The notes under the pieces are model-generated. The model was not told the origin of the DNA. It saw nothing but the letters and a program-made list of their open reading frames with translations, and searched no databases. From assembly GCA_018818205.1 (NCBI GenBank), contig JAHISJ010000023.1, positions 95,103 to 159,102 on the forward strand: a stretch of 64,000 bases of DNA, in the 5' to 3' direction. Source of the stretch: Patescibacteria group bacterium. GTDB taxonomy: Bacteria > Patescibacteriota > JABMPQ01 > JAHIRA01. A program made the translations under genes and the position numbers. Positions 26,567 through 44,817 of the stretch are shown piece by piece (the stretch's first letter is position 1; each line of letters starts with the position of its first letter).

Positions 26567-26594
26567 TTGACAAAACCTCTAATTACCGTAGAAT
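26567..26594 (+). promoter_or_regulatory. sigma70-like promoter, TTGACA-N16-TAGAAT
   Basis: TTGACA at 26567-26572 and TAGAAT at 26589-26594, ~35 nt upstream of the AGGAGG-ATG of paralog 1. Confidence 0.5.
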
Positions 26595-26629
26595 TCGAAG
26601 TCACACTACACAAATGTTCAGGAGGAACA

Positions 26630-27622
26630 ATGAAAAAAATATTCACAATTATTCTATTTATGTTGATTCCATTTTATGCCCAGGCAAGTGTTAACAAACT
26701 GGGCGTACTTCAACTCGGTCATGCACTTGTGTGTAAAAGATTACAGCAAGAAATTTTACCAGTAGTTTTAAAGATCCTTCGTCAAAGAGATGTACAATTT
26801 GATATTATCGATATTGAACCACAAATATATTATGACAACTATCTTAAGGAAGCACGAAAAAGAAAGTTACCATATTTACTGTTATTGTCCTGCCAAAGTA
26901 CAGAGGTAAGTAAATTCAAATATCAGACTCTCTTTATACCAGTGCTCTTAAAAATTCTGGGGAAAAATTCTAAAAGCTTTAAGACAGATAGCTTAAAGCT
27001 ATATCATGTAAAGAAGTTCAAGGGGGTAAAAAACTACGTGATTAAGATAGTAAAAAGATATCTGTCATTAGTTTGGGAAAAACGAAAATTATCGTTTGTT
27101 CGTGGTTTTGTGCTCTGTGGGAACTTAATCACAACCGACTTTAATCTGGGACTTATCTTTATGGGGGTTTACGATTTAAGGTACAAAAGCAGACGCAGAC
27201 TTGCTTTTGGTATTACTGCAGGAATTGATTTTGCACAACGCTATAGAGTATCTCTTTCTGCTCTTGGTGGGTATCCCATCACTTCTGCCTCATTAAACCT
27301 GTTCTTTTCTTTAAGCGGGGCGTATGCGTTACTCTTTAAGCAGTGGAACGTTTTTTCACTTTGGATATCACCGATTGGATACGAAAATAGATTATTTTTC
27401 TTTTCAAAGAGTACCGATTTCAGAGGTCATGAGCACAGGTTTCCAGTGGGTATTGATCTTGAGCTTAACCTACTTCGTATTTTTGGAGTGAGAGCGTATG
27501 ACCTGAAACTTGTTCTAGGCGCGCGGTATTCATTAGGCTTTGCTGTTTCCAACACTAATACGCCTGCAACATTTTTGTGGAGAGATGTATCTTTTCACTC
27601 ACGATTGCTGTGGACATTTTAA
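26630..27622 (+). CDS. secreted protein of unknown function, paralog 1 (beta-rich C-terminal domain ending in aromatic residues)
   Basis: AGGAGGA RBS plus ATG at 26630. Signal peptide MKKIFTIILFMLIPFYAQA. The C-terminal ~170 aa are homologous to the 27723 ORF. Confidence 0.6.
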   Translation: MKKIFTIILFMLIPFYAQASVNKLGVLQLGHALVCKRLQQEILPVVLKILRQRDVQFDIIDIEPQIYYDNYLKEARKRKLPYLLLLSCQSTEVSKFKYQTLFIPVLLKILGKNSKSFKTDSLKLYHVKKFKGVKNYVIKIVKRYLSLVWEKRKLSFVRGFVLCGNLITTDFNLGLIFMGVYDLRYKSRRRLAFGITAGIDFAQRYRVSLSALGGYPITSASLNLFFSLSGAYALLFKQWNVFSLWISPIGYENRLFFFSKSTDFRGHEHRFPVGIDLELNLLRIFGVRAYDLKLVLGARYSLGFAVSNTNTPATFLWRDVSFHSRLLWTF

Positions 27623-27627
27623 TTCTA

Positions 27628-27662
27628 CGCCCCCTAGCCATTACGCATAGGTGGGCTTTTTT
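27628..27662 (+). terminator. strong intrinsic terminator (CGCCCCCTAGC...GCATAGGTGGGC plus T6), copy 1
   Basis: GC-rich ~11-bp stem followed by TTTTTT. A near-identical copy follows paralog 2. Confidence 0.75.
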
Positions 27663-27663
27663 C

Positions 27664-27692
27664 TTGACAGTATCTTACATTTATTGTATTAT
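27664..27692 (+). promoter_or_regulatory. sigma70-like promoter, TTGACA-N17-TATTAT
   Basis: TTGACA 27664-27669 and TATTAT 27687-27692, then AAGGAGGA and a GTG start at 27723. Confidence 0.55.
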
Positions 27693-27722: not shown

Positions 27723-28721
27723 GTGAAAAAATATCTGTGTTTTTTTTATTTCTTAACTCTATTTCCTTGCGCTGCTCAAGGCGCTGCTCAAGTAGATTTG
27801 TCAAAAAAACTTGCTGTGCTTAAAGTCGGAATGTCTGGGAAATGTGCCCAGATTCAACAAAATCAGTGGAAAAATGTGGTAAAAAAAATGATTATCAAAA
27901 AAGGGATCCCCTTTGAAGTACTTAAGACACCTCGTAATCGTAAAGAGTTTTTAGCATTGATCAAAGATGCTGAGAAAAAAAAGGCAAGATTGATTCTTCT
28001 TATGATGTGTGGTCCGGCTAGAATTCATCAGAAAAAAGTGTATAAGCATGCGATTTTTCTATTCTTTATTAAAAATGAAGATAAAAATGCATTTTCTATT
28101 TATGCCCAATCTAGGACCACAAAAACAATCAAAGACGTTAAAAAACGTTTAAGTGTAATTTTGGATCATGGAAAAAGGTTTTTAGAATCAAGATATGTTC
28201 CAAAAAGATTCTTCAAAAACGAATCAAGAGGAAAAAAGCTCGATACTGCCTTTAATCTTGGACTTTCTGCTATAAGTACATATGATTTTATGTATAAAAC
28301 CAAGGGAAGACTTGCCTTTGGTGTAGCAGGTGATATTGACTTTGTACGTCGATACAGATTGTCGCTTGCTGTGCACGGCGGATTTCCACTATCCTTACCT
28401 TCCCTTAATATATTCGTTTCAGTGAGTGGAGCGTACGCATTACTCCACAAAAAATGGAATGTGTTTTCCTTCTGGATTGTTCCAATTGGGTATGAGGCAA
28501 GGCTGCTATTTTCAGGAAGTAGCCTTAAAGGACATGAGCATAGAATTCCGCTGGGAATTGACTTAGAGCTTCATGTTTTGCGATTGTTTAAAGTTAATAA
28601 ACCTGATTTACGTTTTGCTGTTGGTGGACGATATTCGATTGGCTTTGCCTTTGGCAAGTCTAAAAGCAGGTTTTCCTATTCTGAAATTTTATTCAATGCC
28701 GGCTTAAAGCTGGCATTATAA
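27723..28721 (+). CDS. secreted protein of unknown function, paralog 2 (tandem duplicate of 26630..27622)
   Basis: GTG start after AAGGAGGA. Signal peptide MKKYLCFFYFLTLFPCAAQGAAQ. Shares LAFG..G.DF..RYR.SL...GG.P...SLN.F.S.SGAYALL.K.WNVFS.WI.PIGYE.RL.F......GHEHR.P.GIDLEL..LR.F with paralog 1. Confidence 0.6.
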   Translation: MKKYLCFFYFLTLFPCAAQGAAQVDLSKKLAVLKVGMSGKCAQIQQNQWKNVVKKMIIKKGIPFEVLKTPRNRKEFLALIKDAEKKKARLILLMMCGPARIHQKKVYKHAIFLFFIKNEDKNAFSIYAQSRTTKTIKDVKKRLSVILDHGKRFLESRYVPKRFFKNESRGKKLDTAFNLGLSAISTYDFMYKTKGRLAFGVAGDIDFVRRYRLSLAVHGGFPLSLPSLNIFVSVSGAYALLHKKWNVFSFWIVPIGYEARLLFSGSSLKGHEHRIPLGIDLELHVLRLFKVNKPDLRFAVGGRYSIGFAFGKSKSRFSYSEILFNAGLKLAL

Positions 28722-28726
28722 TCCTA

Positions 28727-28761
28727 CGCCCCCTAGCTGTTACGCTTAGGTGGGCTTTTTT
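28727..28761 (+). terminator. strong intrinsic terminator, copy 2 (CGCCCCCTAGC...GCTTAGGTGGGC plus T6)
   Basis: Same stem as 27628-27662 with small loop/bulge differences, followed by TTTTTT. Confidence 0.75.
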
Positions 28762-28833
28762 ATTACAAACTATCTTACTTCTCTTTTTACAATTTGATAT
28801 ACTAAAGTATCAGTTAATAATTAATACTCATGT

Positions 28834-35037: not shown

Positions 35038-36312
35038 TTGATTAATGAATATCCTCACTTCATGGACTTATTCGACAAAAACATACAGCAGTACGAAAAA
35101 AAAGCTGCACCACTCGCTGATCGCATGCGTCCCAAGACACTCAATGATTTTATTGGTCAAAGCGAGTTAGTTGGGAAGGGAAAGGTGCTGAGACAAATGA
35201 TTGAAGACGATACCATCTCTTCAATGCTTTTTTGGGGTCCACCGGGGTCAGGAAAAACAACACTTGCCAAAATTATTGCAAAAGAGAGTAAAACAACATT
35301 CGTACCGCTCTCTGCAGTTTCTGTTGGGAAAAAGAAGGTTATAGAAGTATGCACTAAAGCATATAATGATCTTAAGTTTTATCAAAAGAGGACAATTTTA
35401 TTTTTGGATGAAATCCATAGGTTTAACAAAGCCCAGCAAGATACCTTTTTACCGTTTGTAGAAAAGGGGATAATCACACTCATTGGAGCAACAACAGAGA
35501 ACCCTTCATTCGAAATCAATAATGCTCTTCTCTCTCGCTGTCAGGTATTTGTGTTTAATACTCATTCCGAAGAGGATATTAGAAAAATACTTTCTCAAGC
35601 GCTAAGTGAATCTGAGTGGGGGCTTGGTACGTTTAATCATACAATCGAGCCTAAGGCACTTGATTTTCTAGCAAATGTGGCGGACGGTGATGCAAGAACC
35701 GCTCTTTCAACACTTGAGCTTGCATCACAGAGCGTAAGGAGTAGTGGAAAAAAGAAAATTACACTGAGTGCTATAGAAGGAGCTATTCAAAAACGTGCAC
35801 TTTTATATGACAAAAAGGGAGAGGAGCACTACAATATCATTTCAGCTCTTCATAAAAGCATGAGAAACTCAGATCCGGATGCTACGCTGTATTGGCTTGA
35901 GCGAATGTTGCAATCGGGTGAAGATCCCAGATATATCTTAAGGAGAATGATCAGGTTTGCCTCAGAAGATGTAGGTCTTGCAGACCCAAATGCACTCACC
36001 GTAGCAGTGTCAGCACTTAGCGCATATGAATGTGTAGGACTCCCTGAAGGGTCGCTTGCACTTGCTGAGTGCGCCGTCTATTTAGCAAAAGCTCCAAAAG
36101 ATAATTCACTGTATGTTGCGGAAAAACAGGTTCAAAAAGATATTAAAGAAAAAGGAGCATTGCCGGTGCCAAAACATATTAGAAACTCACCAACCAAGCT
36201 TATGAAAGATCTGGACTACGGCAAAGGGTACAAATATGCACACGATTTTAAAAACAAAAAAACAGACATGCAGTGTATGCCGGATGAGCTTAAGGGAAAG
36301 AAGTACTTTTAG
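35038..36312 (+). CDS. rarA: replication-associated recombination protein A (AAA+ ATPase RarA/MgsA)
   Basis: FWGPPGSGKTTLAKII Walker A, LFLDEIHRFNKAQQD Walker B/sensor, and the MgsA C-terminal helical domain. Confidence 0.85.
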   Translation: MINEYPHFMDLFDKNIQQYEKKAAPLADRMRPKTLNDFIGQSELVGKGKVLRQMIEDDTISSMLFWGPPGSGKTTLAKIIAKESKTTFVPLSAVSVGKKKVIEVCTKAYNDLKFYQKRTILFLDEIHRFNKAQQDTFLPFVEKGIITLIGATTENPSFEINNALLSRCQVFVFNTHSEEDIRKILSQALSESEWGLGTFNHTIEPKALDFLANVADGDARTALSTLELASQSVRSSGKKKITLSAIEGAIQKRALLYDKKGEEHYNIISALHKSMRNSDPDATLYWLERMLQSGEDPRYILRRMIRFASEDVGLADPNALTVAVSALSAYECVGLPEGSLALAECAVYLAKAPKDNSLYVAEKQVQKDIKEKGALPVPKHIRNSPTKLMKDLDYGKGYKYAHDFKNKKTDMQCMPDELKGKKYF

Positions 36313-36814
36313 TAAGAGGTAACGATCTTGACTACTCATTTTTTTTGAGCCATAACAAAAGGCATTTTACGTTAAGGAGGAGCTGGTGATAAAGTACCAA
36401 AAGACAATTGAAGCATTATCTTTTGTAGAGTATTTAGAGAAAACAAAAAATCCTGAGGAAATTTTTTTGTTTTCTTATGATACACATAGAGCAATTATTA
36501 TTAGCAAAAAACACAATGACTCCAGAAGGCTTTGGCAGAGGGTTTGAAGTTCCACCAAAAAGAAAAGAACCTCACGAAGAATCACTGGATGAAAAAACAA
36601 CACAAGACAAAGAACAGAGAAACGTTGAACAAAAACCGTTTGAGAAGCCAAGGGTTGATTCTAATGACGATGATACGAGTGACGGAGAAGAGAAATAAAG
36701 TATTCATTTTTTGTCATTCCGGACAGTCTTTCTTAAGACTGAGCCGGAATCTCAACGCTTACAGTTTAGTCACAATATTCCTGGATGATATTTAACCAAA
36801 GAATTACGTAATAA

Positions 36815-37252
36815 TTACGTAATTCTTTTGAAATGCTCAACCGCTGGTTTTATATTTGGAGCTACATCTTCTGGCAAATCATCAATAGCAATCCATTGCC
36901 ACTCACGCACATCTCTCCCTGGTGTGATAGTCTCATTTAGTAATTCAGCTTTGTAGTGAAATAAAACGACGTATTCTGTTTTATTTTCTGCACCTCTAGT
37001 AAACGAAATCACAAATGGCTTCCCATCAATTTGAACATCAACACCAAGCTCTTCTTTCACTTCTCTTTTGGCTGTTTCTATCATAGATTCGTCATCGTGC
37101 ATTCTACCGCCTGGGAACTTCCAAAAATTATCGTCTCCGTGTTTATCTAAAAGGACTTTGCTGTCTTGAATAATCACCGGTCCCGAGGCTATTGAAAGAA
37201 GTGTCTTAGTATTTTCAGGATCAATAGAAGGAAATTTGTTAAATTCTATCAT
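36815..37252 (-). CDS. NUDIX hydrolase
   Basis: Nudix box GGRMHDDESMIETAKREVKEELGV (Gx5Ex7REUxEExGU). Confidence 0.75.
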   Translation of the reverse strand: MIEFNKFPSIDPENTKTLLSIASGPVIIQDSKVLLDKHGDDNFWKFPGGRMHDDESMIETAKREVKEELGVDVQIDGKPFVISFTRGAENKTEYVVLFHYKAELLNETITPGRDVREWQWIAIDDLPEDVAPNIKPAVEHFKRIT

Positions 37253-37316
37253 ATTGTTTATTAAGAAGTATATTCTAATGATAGCAAGCTTTTAGACAGT
37301 GAGTCTATCCCGTTCC

Positions 37317-37505
37317 TGTTTTTTTATAAAAAAAATGATATGCGCAGTGCATATCATACTAATATATTTTCTCAAAAGTGTCAGTAATTTTAAAATCTAT
37401 TGATCCTCAAGCAGTGGATTTTCTCCATCATGAACCCATTGCTGTTGTACTTTTCCTGGTTCAAGAGGCTCAGGCTTCCACACCTCTAACCATTCAGCTT
37501 CCTTG
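37317..37505. repeat. direct repeat copy A (~95% identical to 39985..40174): 3' coding end plus terminator of WD40 paralog A
   Basis: Aligned by eye: ~189 bp with ~9 mismatches. Includes the 9-bp palindrome ATGATATGC-GCAGT-GCATATCAT plus a T/A run, which is an intrinsic terminator on the minus strand. Confidence 0.8.
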
Positions 37506-38839
37506 TCGCTAAAATAGCATACCCAATATCCAAGCTCTTCAAGAAAAACAGGAGTGGAGGAGGAAAGATTACCAGTATCGACAGCATAGTGGGCCAATTG
37601 TTTAGTGATTTTGGAGGTGTAATAGTTTTTACCGGGAGTGAATTGAACCAATAATTTAGTTTCAAAATCAAAGAGATAGATGACTCCGTTTTCATTTCCG
37701 GCAACAATTTTTGAACCATCGTCTAAAACATTCCAGCAAAGTATTGATCCTTTTCCTGTTTCAAAGCTTACCTTTCCAATATAAAAGGTATTAGTGGTGT
37801 AATTTTCTGTACGTGGAGGATTTAATGAAGTATTTTCTATATGAGATAGTTCGGTTTTGCTTGCAGTTTTCCCGTCTTTAAGTAATCTTATTTCACGTTT
37901 TTCAGCTACACCGCCTCCATATGTTCTTTGTATACGATGTGTGGATGATGATGTTTTAGCGTCAATCGAGGCTATTTCTACTGGGTCTGTTTTTTGAGCG
38001 TCACCAATATCGATTTCAACTTTATACGTAACAATCGATTTCCCACCCCAACCATGGGTGACCTTCGTCTCATAAGTTACAAAAACTTTTTCCCCAACGA
38101 ATTTTGAGCCTGTGATTTCACCTTCAAAAGGAATGAATAGTATATTCTCTCCATTAAAGCCAAAAATTTCAATAATGCTTTGTTTCTGCCCGTTATGGCT
38201 TGTATCAGTAACGTAAGTATAAAGAAAACTACTATCGTCAGGACAAATTGACAGTTGAGCTCCTGAAACATCTTGGTCTAAGTCATCTTTTGGACAAAAG
38301 CTGTTTTCTCCTGTTTCTAAATTGACAATTTGGAAACCATCTTTGATTTCATATGCTAAAAACTGGTTAGAGGGTGAGATTGCTACAAGGCTGGTCCTCA
38401 CTTTTGGTCTGTGTAAGATTGGCTTGAGAGTATCATCTTGAACTGCAAAAATTTCAATACTATTTCGTGTTACACAACAAATATACTTGTCATTTGACGA
38501 AAAAAATACCCTTGCTTGTTTATGGTAAGAATATTTGCCTGGAATTTCGCTATTATCTTCATTTTTCCTTGCAATTCTTAAAACAGAGAGGCACTTCATG
38601 CTTTTTATGTCAAAAAGCATCAACATACCTCCCTGATTCACAAGAGTGATGTAGCCATGGCTGATTGCAATACCACAAAATCTATAAGCATTTTTAATTT
38701 CGGACTTATTTTGATATTTTTCTTCAATGAGCGGGGAAAGTTCTCTACGATATTCTCGTAAATGACTGTCAGGAATAAATGGGTTTCCATCAGAATAAAG
38801 GGGAATTATCCACTTGGATAATTTTTTTTCTTCTTCCAT
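37397..38839 (-). CDS. WD40-like beta-propeller protein, paralog A
   Basis: Propeller-type repeats (VNQGGMLMLFDIKSMKCLSVLRIA, FSSNDKYICCVTRNSIEIFAVQD). C-terminal 35 aa EAEWLEVWKPEPLEPGKVQQQWVHDGENPLLEDQ are shared with paralog B. Confidence 0.6.
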   Translation of the reverse strand: MEEEKKLSKWIIPLYSDGNPFIPDSHLREYRRELSPLIEEKYQNKSEIKNAYRFCGIAISHGYITLVNQGGMLMLFDIKSMKCLSVLRIARKNEDNSEIPGKYSYHKQARVFFSSNDKYICCVTRNSIEIFAVQDDTLKPILHRPKVRTSLVAISPSNQFLAYEIKDGFQIVNLETGENSFCPKDDLDQDVSGAQLSICPDDSSFLYTYVTDTSHNGQKQSIIEIFGFNGENILFIPFEGEITGSKFVGEKVFVTYETKVTHGWGGKSIVTYKVEIDIGDAQKTDPVEIASIDAKTSSSTHRIQRTYGGGVAEKREIRLLKDGKTASKTELSHIENTSLNPPRTENYTTNTFYIGKVSFETGKGSILCWNVLDDGSKIVAGNENGVIYLFDFETKLLVQFTPGKNYYTSKITKQLAHYAVDTGNLSSSTPVFLEELGYWVCYFSDKEAEWLEVWKPEPLEPGKVQQQWVHDGENPLLEDQ

Positions 38840-38845
38840 GCTTCC

Positions 38846-38932
38846 TCCTTGAAGCGTTTTTCAAACTTCCTCCGTGAAGTTTTTAAAGGATACTGGATTT
38901 ATACAGTATTAGATTAAAAAAGTCAAGACCAA
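38846..38932. repeat. direct repeat copy A' (near-identical to ~41500..41592): promoter/5'UTR of WD40 paralog A
   Basis: On the minus strand: TTGACT-N17-TATAAA promoter (+ strand 38921-38926 / 38898-38903) and AAGGAGG RBS. Matches the copy upstream of paralog B apart from a 4-nt indel and a few SNPs. Confidence 0.75.
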
Positions 38933-39103
38933 AGTACTCAAATAGCGAATTACTTATTTAAGACAAAAGAACAATCACTAGTTTTTACGCGAATGGCTTA
39001 AAAAAAGAAAAAATAAGTTTTATGCAATTCAAATCAACAGTATTGAACTTTAGTAATTTTCAGCTACTTTTCAATCATTGCACCAAAATCTCAAGGAGGA
39101 GAC

Positions 39104-39934
39104 ATGTGTAAATGCGCCCCCATAACTTCAATCGAGGCAATCTCGGTTGAGAAATTAGATGAGCTTTCGACACACGTCAAGGAATGTGACACGTGTCGAG
39201 AAAAACTTATGCAATCAGCAATGACCAGTAGGGATGAATGGTTTGTAGTCAGCATAATCAAATTTACGTTTCAAAGATTAATTTCCTTCTTTAGCAAACC
39301 AACGTGCTTTTGTTATTCTGCTCAAGAGATAAAAGCGTATGGTTCAAAAGAAAATGACTTGAGTGATGAAGAAAAAGCAGCAATGGAGTATCATTTGAGA
39401 ATTTGTAATTGTTGTGCAAAACAGTATGTCCTATTAGATCTTGCTCCGCATAAAGCAGAGTGTGAAGAAATCCATGGATTGATTGATAGTCTGCTTCAAA
39501 ATCATCGGATGCAAGAAGTTGCAACGCATCTTTTATCTTGCAATCGTTGCTTGTTGTACCTTTGCCGGAAAATACGAAATTCTACCGCTTCAGAAGAACT
39601 GTCCTCAGCGAATGTAAAAATTCTGAAGCTCCAAGAACTGAAAGCACACCTAATGTCCTTATTTGTTAAGGAAGGTGATCCTGAACTTGCAGAAATTGCA
39701 GATGGTAAAGTTCAAGATTGTTTCTCAAAAGAAGAACTTGCCAATTGGCTCTTAAGACCTGCTCCTACTCAGTGCGGTGAAAAAATATATCCTTGTTTAA
39801 CCGGAATTTTTGATTCGTATGCATCGGTAGCACTGAGGTTAGGAAAAGATCCAAAAATCTTATCTCAAGAAGAAAGACAATTGATTCGACTTCATTTACT
39901 GTTCTGCGAAGAATGTGTTGAAAAAATAAGTTAA
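39104..39934 (+). CDS. Cys-rich protein with four HxxxCxxC (zf-HC2, anti-sigma-type zinc finger) motifs
   Basis: HVKECDTC, HLRICNCC, HLLSCNRC, HLLFCEEC; AAGGAGGA RBS before the ATG. Transcribed divergently from paralog A. Confidence 0.55.
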   Translation: MCKCAPITSIEAISVEKLDELSTHVKECDTCREKLMQSAMTSRDEWFVVSIIKFTFQRLISFFSKPTCFCYSAQEIKAYGSKENDLSDEEKAAMEYHLRICNCCAKQYVLLDLAPHKAECEEIHGLIDSLLQNHRMQEVATHLLSCNRCLLYLCRKIRNSTASEELSSANVKILKLQELKAHLMSLFVKEGDPELAEIADGKVQDCFSKEELANWLLRPAPTQCGEKIYPCLTGIFDSYASVALRLGKDPKILSQEERQLIRLHLLFCEECVEKIS

Positions 39935-39984
39935 ATCTAGTGAAGAAACACTTCTATCAGAGAAACACCTGTATCCATACAGCG

Positions 39985-40174
39985 TGTTTTTTTTATAAAA
40001 AAAATGATATGCGCAGTGCATATCATACTAATATATTTTCTCAAAAGTGTCAGTAATTTTAAAATCTATTGATCTTCAACCAGTGGATTTTCACCATCAT
40101 AAACCCATTGCTGTAGAGTTTTTCCTGGTTCAAGAGGCTCAGGCTTCCACACCTCTAACCATTCAGCTTCCTTG
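39985..40174. repeat. direct repeat copy B (pairs with 37317..37505)
   Basis: See copy A. Same palindromic terminator and the same last ~35 codons. Confidence 0.8.
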
Positions 40175-41493
40175 CTGTTATGGTATTGAACGTACAAGCC
40201 AACGCTTTCCAAGTAAATCCAGTCGTCTAGAGAATAAGCTTCACTAAATTCTGTGTCTCTAAATAGCCAAAGAAATGAACCAACAATCTCTGAATCATAA
40301 TGACTACTTGTGTAAATAAATTCCTTTGACACGTTGTGCTCTGTATCAAAAAAGTTAATAACACGTTCAGCAAGCCAATGACGATCTAGTCCGCTTGGAT
40401 CATTTTCACTTCCAATAACAATCCTTGAGTAATCTTCGCTAATACCCCAACATATCATAGTATGTTTAGCATTAAATGCTTTTTCCGTTCCCACAATAGG
40501 AACTTTACCAAGTCCATCGTAATGTAACACATCGGTAATAATCCATACCCTAGAAGTATCTTTATACACGTAACCTTCTTGAATAAACTCTAATTTCTCC
40601 TCGTAGTTGTAATAATGCAAAACAATTTTAGGTTCCGCTATTTCTTGCCCATTAAAATCAAGTTCTAATTCATAAAAACGTGTATAGCGTCCATGCTCGT
40701 CCCTTCCGCTTACTCGATTAATGACAATAATCTTTTCTTTATCTTCATCTACTCTTGCTGCTTCAACGAATCCTTCAATAACTATGCTCGCATAAAGCTT
40801 CCCTGTAAAATCAATAATTTCTATAACATTATGGCCCGGCTGAAAGTCATACCCTCTCTCATCGGTAATGGTTCTAAAAGCAAGAATCCTCGTGTCTTCG
40901 TGACATAAGGAAAGGTGGCGTGGAGGATACCACTCTCTTTCTATAAAATGTTTAATAAGCTCATTATTTCCTGTTTTTAAGTCTAACTTACAGTATCCAT
41001 CCCTAACGCGGTACACAAAGAATTGGCTTGAGGATGAAAAAGTATGTGCGCGACATACACAATCTGGATCAGTAAAAATGGGGGTTTGATTTAGTTTATT
41101 GTCTTGAATTTCAAATACTTTAAGATCGTGCGAAATACAGTACAGGTACTGTCCGTTTGGGGAAAATCCAATAGATGCAATTGATTTACGAGAGTCCGGT
41201 AACTCATCTTCTTCTTCACGAGCAACCCTTGACAAAGAAAGGCATTTTTCAGTTTCAATGTCAAAAAGCATTAATATCCCCCCTTTATTTACCACTGCAA
41301 TATGCTCGTTACTCACTGCGATATCACTGAACTCATGTGCTCTAAATATTTTGCCTCGTGGAAATTGTTTTTCATCGAGTACTCTCTTCTTGTCGCTGTC
41401 GTAAGCTTCATTATAACCAATTGTTCGTCTATGAAAATCAAAGGGTTTACCCGTGTAATACAAGGGTATATACCAGCGTGTTATTTCTGTCAT
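40066..41493 (-). CDS. WD40-like beta-propeller protein, paralog B
   Basis: SIGFSPNGQYLYCISHDLKVFEIQD propeller blade. N-terminal ~130 aa resemble paralog A, the middle is diverged, and the C-terminal 35 aa are near-identical. Confidence 0.6.
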   Translation of the reverse strand: MTEITRWYIPLYYTGKPFDFHRRTIGYNEAYDSDKKRVLDEKQFPRGKIFRAHEFSDIAVSNEHIAVVNKGGILMLFDIETEKCLSLSRVAREEEDELPDSRKSIASIGFSPNGQYLYCISHDLKVFEIQDNKLNQTPIFTDPDCVCRAHTFSSSSQFFVYRVRDGYCKLDLKTGNNELIKHFIEREWYPPRHLSLCHEDTRILAFRTITDERGYDFQPGHNVIEIIDFTGKLYASIVIEGFVEAARVDEDKEKIIVINRVSGRDEHGRYTRFYELELDFNGQEIAEPKIVLHYYNYEEKLEFIQEGYVYKDTSRVWIITDVLHYDGLGKVPIVGTEKAFNAKHTMICWGISEDYSRIVIGSENDPSGLDRHWLAERVINFFDTEHNVSKEFIYTSSHYDSEIVGSFLWLFRDTEFSEAYSLDDWIYLESVGLYVQYHNSKEAEWLEVWKPEPLEPGKTLQQWVYDGENPLVEDQ

Positions 41494-41499
41494 CTTGCT

Positions 41500-41592
41500 T
41501 TCTCCTTGAAGCGTTGTTTTTTCAAACTTCCTCCGTGAAGTTTTTAAAAGATACTGGATTTATACAGTATTAGATTAAAAAAGTCAAGACCA
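41500..41592. repeat. direct repeat copy B' (pairs with 38846..38932): promoter/5'UTR of paralog B
   Basis: The same TTGACT-N17-TATAAA (+ strand 41582-41587 / 41559-41564) and RBS block. Confidence 0.75.
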
Positions 41593-41699
41593 ATGCAAGT
41601 GATATTAGCTAAAAAACCTCTTAGATACCTATTATTCTTTAATTCCATTCATACTTATTCACTTGACACGCATCCCCACATAAATTAGCGTAATAACAT

Positions 41700-42650
41700 A
41701 TGAAACCGATGATACACGTAAAAAACCTCTGCAAAAAGTATTCAAGCTTTGAAGCACTCAAAGACATCTCTTTTGATGTTGAGAAGGGAGAGGTTGTTGG
41801 CTTTCTTGGTCCTAACGGTGCCGGGAAGACCACTACTATGCGTATTTTAACTGGCTATCTCCCCATGACCTCGGGTAAAGTCGAAATTGATGGACTTGAT
41901 GTGTATGAAGAATCACTTAAAGTACGCTCAAAGATTGGGTATCTACCAGAGACAACGCCACTGTATATGGATATGACCGTCAAAGAATATGTGTCGTATA
42001 TTGCAGAGCTTAAAAAGATTTCTAAGGAAGAGCGAAAAGAGCAGGTCAAAAAAGCCATGAATGATTGTGGCGTTGGACATATAAAGGACAAACTAATAAA
42101 AACGTTGTCAAAGGGATTTAAACAGCGCGTTGGAATTGCACAGGCACTTGTTGGAAATCCTGAGGTCCTTATCTTGGACGAGCCAACCATAGGTCTTGAT
42201 CCAAACCAGATCGTTGAGATAAGAAATTTGATTAAGGATCTTGGAAAAGAAAAGACGGTTATTTTGAGCACACATATTCTACAAGAGGTAAGTGCCACGT
42301 GTAATAAAGTTATTATTATCAGCGAAGGTAAAATAGTTGCAATTGATTCTCCAGAAAATCTAACCTCCAGACTCTCTGGTGGGATGCGTGTTGATATCAC
42401 CGTAAAGGGACCCGAAAGTGAGATTCGCACCTGCTTAGAAGGGCTTGATGCGATAAAAGAAGTAAAAGAAGCTGGCCAGGAAGGCGGCATTGCAACACTC
42501 AGGGTATTTGCAAAAGAAGGGCAAGACCCACGCGAGGTAATCGCATCAGCAGTGGTAAGAAATGGCTGGGGACTTAAAGAAATGAGACGCGAAGCAGTAA
42601 ACTTAGAAGAGATATTTATGAAGCTTACGAAGGACGATAAAAAATCATGA
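41700..42650 (+). CDS. ABC transporter ATP-binding protein (ABC-2 type)
   Basis: Walker A GPNGAGKTTTMRILTG, signature LSKGFKQRV, Walker B ILDEPT. Confidence 0.85.
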   Translation: MKPMIHVKNLCKKYSSFEALKDISFDVEKGEVVGFLGPNGAGKTTTMRILTGYLPMTSGKVEIDGLDVYEESLKVRSKIGYLPETTPLYMDMTVKEYVSYIAELKKISKEERKEQVKKAMNDCGVGHIKDKLIKTLSKGFKQRVGIAQALVGNPEVLILDEPTIGLDPNQIVEIRNLIKDLGKEKTVILSTHILQEVSATCNKVIIISEGKIVAIDSPENLTSRLSGGMRVDITVKGPESEIRTCLEGLDAIKEVKEAGQEGGIATLRVFAKEGQDPREVIASAVVRNGWGLKEMRREAVNLEEIFMKLTKDDKKS

Positions 42651-43354
42651 ACATCTTTGCCATAATGAAGAGGGAGCTTAAGGCATACTTCTATTCACCA
42701 ATAGCGTATGTTGTTTTTGCTTTGTTTTTGCTTCTCGCTGGTTATTTTTTCTCGATGATTTTGTTACTCTCAAAAGAAGCGTCAATGCGAGCAGCGATGT
42801 ATAATTTTGTTATTACGCTTCTCTTTTTCGCACCACTTATCACTATGCGGCTCTTTGCAGAGGAGAGAAAAACAGGAACGCTCGAGGTGCTCATGACTCG
42901 TCCGGTACGTGACATAGAGGTTGTGCTCGGCAAGTTCTTTGCGGCACTATCACTGTACGCATTAATGCTTGCATCTACCTTGGTATACGTAGGCGTTTTA
43001 GTTAAATACGGCAATCCTGATATGGGACCAATCTGGAGCGGTTACTTAGGTCTTTTTCTCCTTGGTGCATGTTTTATTGCGCTGGGGATCTTTGCATCAA
43101 CTCTTACAGAAAGTCAAATCATTGCTGCTGTTGTTGGTTTTGCGTTTATGTTACTCTTTTGGGTTATTGGATGGCTTTCAGGCACGCTAGGCTTTTCTAC
43201 CGAGAGTATCTTTACCTATATTTCACTCTCTTCACATTTTGATGACTTTGTGAGAGGCATTATCGATTTTAGAGCGGTGATTTATTATCTCTCATTTGTA
43301 GTATTCTTTCTATTTGTCACGGTTAAGTCAATCGAGGTACGAAAATGGAAGTAG
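42647..43354 (+). CDS. ABC-2 family permease
   Basis: Six-TM hydrophobic protein; stop/start overlap with the ATPase gene. Confidence 0.7.
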   Translation: MNIFAIMKRELKAYFYSPIAYVVFALFLLLAGYFFSMILLLSKEASMRAAMYNFVITLLFFAPLITMRLFAEERKTGTLEVLMTRPVRDIEVVLGKFFAALSLYALMLASTLVYVGVLVKYGNPDMGPIWSGYLGLFLLGACFIALGIFASTLTESQIIAAVVGFAFMLLFWVIGWLSGTLGFSTESIFTYISLSSHFDDFVRGIIDFRAVIYYLSFVVFFLFVTVKSIEVRKWK

Positions 43355-44817
43355 ATAACGATAATAAAGATACAATGAAGTCAAAGAAATCAATTGGCTT
43401 TTTTGACAAGCGGTCAACGCAGTATGGAACAAACTCCATTCTTTTGATTGTGGCTGTTTTAGGAATTCTCATTTTAGTAAATTACATTGCGCAAAAAGAA
43501 GTGTATCGTGTAGATGTGACAAAGAATAAGCAATATACTCTTTCTGATCAGACAAAAAATGTCCTAGATCAGGTTGATGAAGAGATAAAAATTATTGCAT
43601 TTTACACGGATAGCACAGGAGCAAAGCAAGAAGTTCAGGATTTGGTAGAAGAGTATAAAGCACTAAATAGCAATATTACTCTTGAGTTTATTGATCCGGA
43701 TAAAAATCCGGGGACGGCTCGTCAATACGGAATTTCACGGTATAATGCAATCATTATAGAAAAAGGTGATAAGTCAGAAGAATTAAGCTCGGCCACAGAG
43801 AGCGAGCTTACCAGCGGAATCTTACGTTTGGTTAAAGATGACACAAAGAAAGTATATTTTTTGACGGGTCATGGGGATAAGAGTGTTACTTCGACAGAGC
43901 AGACCAAAGCGTACGGCATGATAAAAAATGAGCTAGAAAAGCAAATATATACTGTAGAAGAGCTTTCAATTATTTCAACGCAGGGTATCCCAGAAGATGC
44001 AGCAGTAGTTATTCTTGCTGGTCCAACGGTAGAAATTTCTGACAAAGAAAAAGAAGTCATGCGAGATTATATCGTAAACAGAAAGGGTAAAGTACTATTT
44101 CTGTTTGATCCGTTGATCGATACAAGCGCAGGTCTTAATATGGGTGATTTCCTGAATGAATTCGGGCTTGCGTATAAAGACGGTGTTGTTATTGATCAAG
44201 CGCAAGGATATTACGGAGATGCGCTGACGCCAGTTGTTCAAAAAGATGGGTTTGAAAGTCATCAAATTACTCAAAAGCAAGAGCTTGTCTATTTTCCTGG
44301 AGTTTCAAATGCAGGAAAGGCAGAATCAGTTCCGGAAGGATGGGCAGTTACAGAACTTGCCAGATCTACTGCCACTTCATGGTTAGAATCTGATACAACC
44401 AAAACAGAAGTAGGTTTTGGAGAAGGTGATATAGAAGGCCCAGTATCACTTATAGCAGTAGCACAAGAAGTTGTTCCAACAGATCAAAAGGAAGGTGAGG
44501 AAAGTTCAGATGATAAAGATAGCGCACGTATAGTCCTTGTTGGTGATTCTGACTTTGCTCTTGATGCGATCATCGGTTCAGACATTGGTCTTTTTAACCG
44601 CGATCTCTTCTTAAATATGGTTAACTGGCTAACAGCAGATGAAGATTTAATTTCAATTCTACCAAAAGAAGCAGTAACGTCAGAAGTTGCTCTTACTGGA
44701 ACCCAATCAAAAGTAATCTTTTGTCTGATCGTGTTTGGTATGCCCGCCATCTTTGTTGTTGTTGGTATCGTGGTTATTGTGAGACGTAAAAGAAAATCAA
44801 ACAAGGAGCATGCATAA
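43345..44817 (+). CDS. GldG-like ABC-transporter auxiliary protein
   Basis: N-terminal TM helix, a large periplasmic-type domain with GldG-like blocks (NPGTARQYGISRYNAIII, VYFLTGHGDKS), C-terminal TM helix. Confidence 0.55.
   Translation: MEVDNDNKDTMKSKKSIGFFDKRSTQYGTNSILLIVAVLGILILVNYIAQKEVYRVDVTKNKQYTLSDQTKNVLDQVDEEIKIIAFYTDSTGAKQEVQDLVEEYKALNSNITLEFIDPDKNPGTARQYGISRYNAIIIEKGDKSEELSSATESELTSGILRLVKDDTKKVYFLTGHGDKSVTSTEQTKAYGMIKNELEKQIYTVEELSIISTQGIPEDAAVVILAGPTVEISDKEKEVMRDYIVNRKGKVLFLFDPLIDTSAGLNMGDFLNEFGLAYKDGVVIDQAQGYYGDALTPVVQKDGFESHQITQKQELVYFPGVSNAGKAESVPEGWAVTELARSTATSWLESDTTKTEVGFGEGDIEGPVSLIAVAQEVVPTDQKEGEESSDDKDSARIVLVGDSDFALDAIIGSDIGLFNRDLFLNMVNWLTADEDLISILPKEAVTSEVALTGTQSKVIFCLIVFGMPAIFVVVGIVVIVRRKRKSNKEHA

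Follow-up and report, generated by a model that had tools for sequence, protein, structure and literature searches.

Near-identical ends on two anciently diverged, putatively WD40-like paralogs of a Patescibacteria genome suggest short-tract gene conversion

The uncultured, ultra-small bacterium studied here belongs to a reduced-genome lineage of Patescibacteria in which paralogs are scarce. In a 64,000-nucleotide (nt) stretch of its genome (positions 95,103 to 159,102 of contig JAHISJ010000023.1, assembly GCA_018818205.1; hereafter the window, whose own numbering is used throughout), we analyzed a three-gene locus at 37253-41640 that contains two paralogs, A and B, and a gene for a cysteine-rich protein between them. 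Paralogs A (37397-38839, 480 amino acids, aa) and B (40066-41493, 475 aa) are both transcribed from the minus strand, and each appears to carry WD40-like blades. At either end the two genes are nearly identical, including at synonymous and non-coding sites, and between these ends they are diverged to saturation. The origin that we consider probable for this mosaic is short-tract gene conversion between two ancient paralogs, acting at both gene ends. A first-pass annotation of the window, made by reading the sequence, had described two minus-strand genes of 475-480 aa with conserved edges and diverged interiors; its coordinates and features were all reproduced here to within 1-3 nt, and several of the interpretations it attached to them fared less well.

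Shared ends and diverged interiors of A and B

The sequence common to the two genes falls into a 3′ and a 5′ module. The 3′ module is a direct repeat of 187 nt (37319-37505 in A, 39988-40174 in B) with 8 differences, or 95.7% identity. Its coding half holds the last 36 codons (KEAEWLEVWKPEPLEPGKVQQQWVHDGENPLLEDQ in A) together with the stop codon (37397-37505 and 40066-40174, minus strand), and its other half is a 3′ untranslated region (UTR) with an intrinsic terminator that is identical at 78 of 78 positions (37319-37396 in A, 39988-40065 in B; minus strand). All 8 differences lie inside the coding part, at 37406-37450, and they are of mixed types, not adenine-specific. The module accordingly consists of a 45-nt segment at 82% identity between two fully identical ones of 55 and 87 nt, which are the longest exact runs common to the two copies. 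The terminator hairpin (37357-37335 plus a T-run in A; 40026-40004 in B) had been recognized earlier as a palindrome, and a terminator scan of 36700-41800 returned exactly two sites, which are the two repeat copies. As RNA, the 3′ UTR and terminator fold somewhat better than shuffled sequence (z = -2.3). Antisense promoter-like sites in the 3′ module (TTCTCA-16-TAAAAT) agree at 9 of 12 positions, are no commoner than in shuffles, and were set aside.

The 5′ module (38845-38932 in A, 41502-41593 in B; minus strand) comprises a promoter-like sequence, a leader, and a ribosome-binding site. It consists of a direct repeat of 76 nt with 1 mismatch (38857-38932 versus 41518-41593, 99%), followed by a 4-nt indel and then 14 more identical nt to 38845 and 41502, respectively; in A it ends about 5 nt ahead of the ATG. 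The promoter TTGACT-N17-TATAAA given in the first-pass annotation can be read directly in both copies, at 38926-38898 and 41587-41559 (-35 box at 38926-38921 and 41587-41582; -10 box at 38903-38898 and 41564-41559). Our consensus scan requires T at the last -10 position and so does not list this sequence, which we therefore keep as promoter-like. Each leader contains two tandem units of ~25 nt, each a short hairpin that displays GGAG(G) in its loop (38840-38875 and 41493-41530). The fold of these hairpins is not better than that of shuffles (z = -1.0 to -1.3), and the same holds for pairing between the 5′ leader and the 3′ module, which 28-36% of shuffles equal. An upstream open reading frame (ORF) in the leader, starting at a TTG 5 nt past the first GGAGG and ending after 11 codons in ATGA on the B start, loses its frame in A through the 4-nt indel and so is not conserved between the copies; it is probably not functional.

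Both repeat pairs are in direct orientation, 2.66-2.67 kb apart. They had been judged by eye to be ~95% identical, and a repeat finder gives 96% and 99%. Each module sequence occurs exactly twice in the window, against 0 copies expected in shuffles, and no inverted repeats were found that link the ends of the two units. A global alignment of the two units leaves the ends far more alike than the interiors: in 30-nt windows of the DNA alignment, identity is 0.87-1.0 within the modules and 0.2-0.7 between them (mean ~0.45). Immediately past the outer module edges it falls to 0.3-0.4, with unrelated genes on either flank. Homology therefore spans no more than the transcription unit: it begins 6 nt ahead of the -35 box and stops where the T/A run of the terminator does.

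Over their full length, the A and B proteins are 31% identical (BLASTP 2e-67, with 60 gap positions), at the lower end of the 30-40% first estimated for the interiors, and the genes are ~45% identical as DNA. For the 409 interior codons, a codon alignment gives a proportion of synonymous differences (pS) of 0.73, which is saturated (dS > 2), and a proportion of nonsynonymous differences (pN) of 0.47. For the last 37 aligned codons, from A residue 444 onward and thus one codon past the module, dS is 0.16 and dN 0.095. With two sequences and saturated synonymous sites, the interior comparison says only that pN is below pS, and a site-wise test would be meaningless. Because interior pS is saturated and pN lies below it, the interiors are ancient and under net purifying selection.

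A third member of the family allows the A/B comparison to be set against an outside copy. An exhaustive HMMER search with an A+B profile, covering representatives of ~15 billion proteins, recovered A, B, and one 84-aa fragment (KKH43_00240, E = 2.5e-18). The fragment lies on another contig of the same genome bin (ena:ERZ27247128:k141_801820, L002 10001-10380), which has a GC content of 0.40 and closely matches the window in tetranucleotide usage (r = 0.97). It is the decayed 3′ part of a B-like gene, with ~76% DNA and 65% protein identity to B, and is bordered by an orphan 245-aa gene and rpmF (L32). The remnant is truncated at its 5′ side against an unrelated divergent gene, carries a CAA-to-TAA nonsense codon where B reads Gln, and has lost most of the conserved tail to a 72-nt deletion; it keeps a recognizable 3′ UTR and terminator hairpin (ATGATATGCACAGTGCGTATCAT plus a T-run). 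Compared with B, the remnant is 75.6% identical in the interior, 77.8% in the remaining tail, and 72% in the 3′ UTR and terminator, whereas A and B over the same three segments are 44%, 92.6%, and 100% identical. The 3′ module of the remnant is no closer to B than its interior is, so the module is not intrinsically slow-evolving, and its ordinary divergence in this copy, which has no partner next to it, argues that the identity of the A and B modules reflects recent exchange. On the same comparison, the exchange between A and B came after B and the remnant had separated.

A second tandem paralog pair in the window is the same phenomenon in a weaker form. Its two plus-strand genes (26567-27622, 351 aa; 27723-28721, 332 aa) encode proteins that are 37% identical and have hydrophobic, signal-peptide-like N termini. 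Interior DNA identity is about 40-60%, and a 51-nt segment with the stop codon and a GC-rich hairpin terminator (27615-27665 versus 28714-28764) is 88% identical. Since this pair also has similar 3′ ends, a general local process fits better than a dedicated system.

Origin of the shared ends

We propose that A and B, which lie in the same orientation 2.7 kb apart, are ancient copies of one gene for a WD40-like protein, lineage-specific and probably cytoplasmic, and that their ends have recently been homogenized by short-tract, non-reciprocal recombination between the copies. The homogenized segments would be the core promoter, leader, and ribosome-binding site at one end and the last 36 codons, 3′ UTR, and terminator at the other. 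The interiors would be too diverged to recombine and would be kept under separate purifying selection. With common expression signals and a common tail, A and B may act as two co-regulated versions of a single scaffold, each binding one partner via the tail. Gene conversion is favored because a patchwork of perfect tracts is its signature, and exchange of some kind because the identity covers sites beyond the reach of protein-level selection (the 78 invariant positions of the 3′ UTR and a tail dS of 0.16). The likeness of the second pair points to a general process rather than a dedicated device, and no recombinase, integrase, or reverse transcriptase domains lie within 10 kb on either side of the locus (hereafter the neighborhood). 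The first-pass annotation had offered a cassette-type locus with recurrent gene conversion or recombination at its ends; sequence exchange at the ends stands as the best explanation, while a cassette system has gained no positive evidence.

Several points weigh against conversion. The locus is known from a single genome, in which no conversion event or chimera was observed, and RecA-dependent rules make it inefficient to create or maintain conversion tracts of ~90 nt with no homology past their outer edge. The 5′ module stops almost exactly at the start codon, and the outer edges fall at the -35 box and where the terminator ends. Conversion alone does not predict such neatness, which would be equally in keeping with modular replacement or with selection for shared regulatory modules. 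Being a pseudogene under relaxed constraint, the remnant may also have a 3′ module that changed more quickly than that of a working gene would. Co-regulation and docking via the tail, finally, are steps that we infer.

Among documented systems, the A/B pair most closely resembles the bab family of Helicobacter pylori. The paralogs babA, babB, and babC have 5′/N-terminal and 3′/C-terminal regions of homology (the C-terminal one >90%) around a paralog-specific middle, and exchange sequence by intragenomic homologous recombination or gene conversion (PMC4552749). A and B likewise have near-identical ends around a paralog-specific middle, but the differences are considerable. The bab genes encode outer-membrane adhesins under host pressure, whereas A and B look cytoplasmic; bab homology extends over hundreds of bp to ~900 bp and is coding, whereas the A/B tracts measure 90 and 187 nt and are mostly non-coding. 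Moreover, bab loci are dispersed and their chimeras documented in many strains, while A and B lie 2.7 kb apart and are known from one genome with no event observed. Intragenomic copies of tufA/tufB and of rRNA operons are likewise kept nearly identical by recurrent gene conversion, down to synonymous and non-coding sites. Homogenization there covers the entire gene; in A and B it is limited to the two ends, and the interiors are saturated. Near-identical segments, synonymous as well as non-coding, thus stand beside saturated ones within the pair, as in mosaic paralogs, and the 3′ segment is not unusually conserved in the copy outside it, the pseudogene remnant.

An alternative that we regard as unlikely is cassette exchange. 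Here, the shared ends would serve as recombination handles, and either the entire transcription unit was recently duplicated and the interior of one copy then replaced by a very divergent allele acquired from a different cell, or the repeats toggle the locus among A-only, B-only, and A+B states through deletion or duplication. That the modules begin and end where the transcription unit does (-35 box to start codon; last 36 codons to terminator end) speaks for it, as do the direct repeats, whose spacing would permit deletion of either gene along with the zinc-protein gene, and the slightly lower GC content of the three-gene region (0.36 versus 0.39), all of whose genes are orphans. Yet no other interiors with these ends turned up among the ~15 billion proteins or in scans of genomes, metagenomes, and viral contigs. 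In the remnant, divergence from B is as great in the B-type 3′ module as in the interior, meaning that the ends are no universally conserved handles, and the neighborhood holds no recombinase. Proteins that look cytoplasmic would also draw no obvious benefit from variation.

The comparison with dedicated variation systems is similarly unfavorable. In Anaplasma msp2/p44, Borrelia vlsE, and Neisseria pilE/pilS, conserved 5′ and 3′ segments flank a variable center and anchor recombination. These segmental antigenic-variation systems encode surface proteins and combine one expression site with many promoterless silent cassettes. A and B differ in being two complete, promoter-bearing genes with no silent cassettes and no export signal: both copies are full-length behind the same promoter-like module, and the sole partial copy is the decayed remnant on the other contig. 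A diversity-generating retroelement finds no reverse transcriptase domain in the neighborhood and no adenine-specific differences between the repeats. For an integron or other site-specific cassette array, there is no integrase in the neighborhood, no inverted repeats at the unit ends, and the units have promoters of their own. The earlier description of the locus as a variable-component module gains no support, with two full copies and one remnant in ~15 billion proteins, both full copies being complete with their own promoter. A version that we consider improbable replaces surface variation with a cytoplasmic interchangeable-subunit locus, in which the ends would be kept as recombination and expression handles while propeller bodies are deleted, re-duplicated, or exchanged by natural transformation; the zinc protein would then be a candidate fixed partner, bound via the common tail. 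In a related reading, equally improbable, the perfectly conserved 78-nt 3′ UTR/terminator would yield a 3′ UTR-derived small RNA shared by both genes.

Constraint without exchange seems about as improbable as this last version. It would hold that the ends are functional DNA or RNA elements, such as a stabilizing leader or a 3′ UTR-derived small RNA, which purifying selection has preserved since the ancient duplication. The perfectly identical 3′ UTR and terminator with its fold z of -2.3, the leader hairpins with GGAG in their loops, and the similar terminator kept by the second paralog pair are in its favor. Perfect runs of 87 and 55 nt that include synonymous sites, set against a saturated interior, nevertheless exceed normal constraint at the level of an element, and the 3′ module is only 72% identical in the third copy. 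An Rfam scan of 36300-42000 at E <= 1 detected no RNA family, and neither the leader folds nor the 5′-3′ pairing surpassed shuffles.

That the arrangement is an artifact of assembly or binning, with alleles of two strains joined in tandem through their shared ends, we hold to be very improbable. The window is part of a 318-kb contig from a short-read metagenome assembly (k141_1722070), and the repeats are of the kind that misleads assemblers. However, the exact shared runs are at most 87 nt, below the assembler k of 141 taken from the contig name, and each junction reaches its unique flank within one read length. The four junctions enter distinct unique sequence (the NUDIX gene, the zinc-protein promoter, the zinc-protein 3′ end, and the ABC transporter), which stitching of alleles would not yield, and a unique 1.05-kb gene lies between the copies. 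Two contigs of different origin, 318,406 and 318,370 bp long, also carry the same A, B, and zinc-protein sequences. A collapsed repeat, which the first-pass annotation had named as what would undo its description, or a chimera is on this evidence unlikely.

A recent duplication with strong diversifying selection acting on the interior, proposed earlier and suggested by nothing beyond the contrast of conserved edges with a variable interior, is refuted by the saturated interior pS, the lower pN, and the 60 gap positions, because selection on protein cannot randomize synonymous sites beside 36 codons at a dS of 0.16.

The WD40-like proteins and the four-motif zinc protein

A and B have few recognizable relatives. 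A word-index search of 5.8 billion protein clusters returned solely A and B themselves, and scans of genomes, metagenomes, and viral contigs with a protein pattern and a 3′ UTR DNA pattern uncovered no further family member. Aside from the remnant, matches to the A+B profile were generic multi-repeat WD40 proteins with E >= 6e-10; 67 multi-stretch proteins matched at E 6e-10 to 9e-4, all at positions ~92-295, and the two that we inspected (P0004 and P0017) contain typical 'AFSPDGKYLATAS' WD units. A sequence profile search of the PDB pointed to WDR61 (E = 6e-4). No Pfam family passed its threshold for either protein, the best scores being 20 bits against 109.9 for A (WD40_WDHD1_1st) and 17.5 bits against a cutoff of 90 for B (Beta-prop_EML_2), and an NCBIfam search of A and B gave nothing relevant.

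Structure prediction locates the WD40 similarity more closely. AlphaFold2 models of A and B, built from alignments of two and three sequences that are too shallow, have a mean predicted local distance difference test score (pLDDT) of 50-51 and are confident solely at residues ~55-290, where four-stranded blades are seen (residues ~54-280 in A, ~55-290 in B). Foldseek comparison of the models to the PDB listed only beta-propellers among the top matches, nearly all with WD40 repeats (WDR61, WDR5); E-values were ~1e-8 but template modeling (TM) scores 0.5 or less, and the C-terminal 190 residues are outside the modeled part. WD40-like blades in the N-terminal half of A and B are thus supported by models and profile matches. 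The propeller assignment of the first-pass annotation holds in part, with fold matches to WD40 propellers at residues 55-290 and multi-stretch WD40 matches, although Pfam scores fall far below threshold and overall model confidence is low.

By a simple hydropathy test, neither A nor B has a signal-peptide-like N terminus or a hydrophobic segment; the highest Kyte-Doolittle mean over 19 residues is 1.1-1.25, compared with 2.63 for the neighboring ABC permease. All three proteins of the locus look cytoplasmic. The tails that A and B have in common include the last predicted beta-strand and an acidic, Trp-rich segment (KEAEWLEVWKPEPLEPGK..QQWV.DGENPL.EDQ), and it is plausible that this shared tail mediates docking to one partner. 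Because the two genes have the same core promoter, leader, ribosome-binding region, and terminator, A and B should be expressed together and at similar levels.

The protein encoded between them, on the plus strand (39104-39934, 276 aa), is an obvious candidate for the partner of the tail, judging by its position. Its gene is divergent to A, convergent with B, and outside the repeated units. The protein contains four H-x3-C-x2-C motifs, at H24, H97, H142, and H264, in agreement with the four HxxxCxxC motifs initially noted. The last of these accounts for a match to zf-HC2 (PF13490; residues 253-271, 25.6 bits against a cutoff of 22.2). Likeness to ZAS anti-sigma proteins of this family extends to the 'L-S-x-E-E...' type helices that precede each motif. 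Unlike ZAS proteins, which have one motif, this protein has four in 276 aa, scores below cutoff with the curated anti-sigma models of NCBIfam (NF052368, 27.4 against 50; TIGR03988, 27.1 against 62.5), and has no homologues beyond an alternative start call of the same gene. A Sigma70 domain is also lacking among the genes called in the neighborhood, which bears out the earlier remark that no sigma factor is nearby; the direct neighbors of the zinc-protein gene are A and B.

At 39935-40026, the zinc-protein gene has an apparent hairpin of its own, imperfect (ACACCTGTATCCATACAGCGTGT), that adjoins a T8-AT-A7 palindrome closing the B terminator module. The convergent zinc-protein and B genes therefore share a back-to-back terminator region of ~90 nt.

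Genomic setting and significance

The three genes (locus tags KKH43_04515, KKH43_04520, and KKH43_04525, annotated as 'Patescibacteria group bacterium') belong to a metagenome-assembled genome and are embedded among ordinary genes, which encode RarA/MgsA, a NUDIX hydrolase, and an ABC transporter with auxiliary proteins. Between rarA and the NUDIX gene lies a highly charged 73-aa ORF (36477-36698, plus strand) that the public record lists as a gene; it matches no Pfam family and had no tblastn match in the loci fetched for comparison. GC content over 37253-41640 is 0.36, versus 0.39 for the whole window, and this is the only part of the window with negative GC skew, which arises because both large genes are on the minus strand. 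Low GC and skew are compatible with a lineage-specific addition. We also considered a mobile element, but the locus has no terminal inverted repeats and no transposase, and there are only two copies in 64 kb. PADLOC and PHROGs assigned no defense-system or phage family to it.

The host is distant from sequenced genomes. In a search of one genome per species (185,579 species), the closest match of the neighboring ABC-transporter auxiliary protein is 43% identical. The nearest relative of the ABC operon (41700-44817) is from another Patescibacteria bin (ATPase 57%, permease 64%, auxiliary protein 44%), followed by Aminicenantes and Acidobacteriota-type bins. The host thus has no close sequenced relative, and therefore no orthologous locus is available for comparison. 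In the genome with the nearest ABC operon, synteny does not extend upstream, where an arginyl-tRNA synthetase gene and another unrelated gene precede the operon; synteny traced via the auxiliary protein is uninformative as to a possible insertion of the trio.

What the locus adds is a further, well-defined case of a known evolutionary process, in an orphan family of an uncultured lineage, and not a new system. It does not open a long-standing question, and with a single bin and no homologues the scope for further computation is limited. The trio of two WD40-like orphans and a zinc protein with four ZAS-type motifs may form a lineage-specific functional unit. If gene conversion is indeed the origin of the shared ends, A and B would represent a clean, small-scale case of concerted evolution limited to the regulatory ends and C-terminal tail of otherwise saturated paralogs. 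It would further mean that short-tract recombination is active in reduced genomes such as this one and can hold divergent proteins under identical expression signals and with a common tail.

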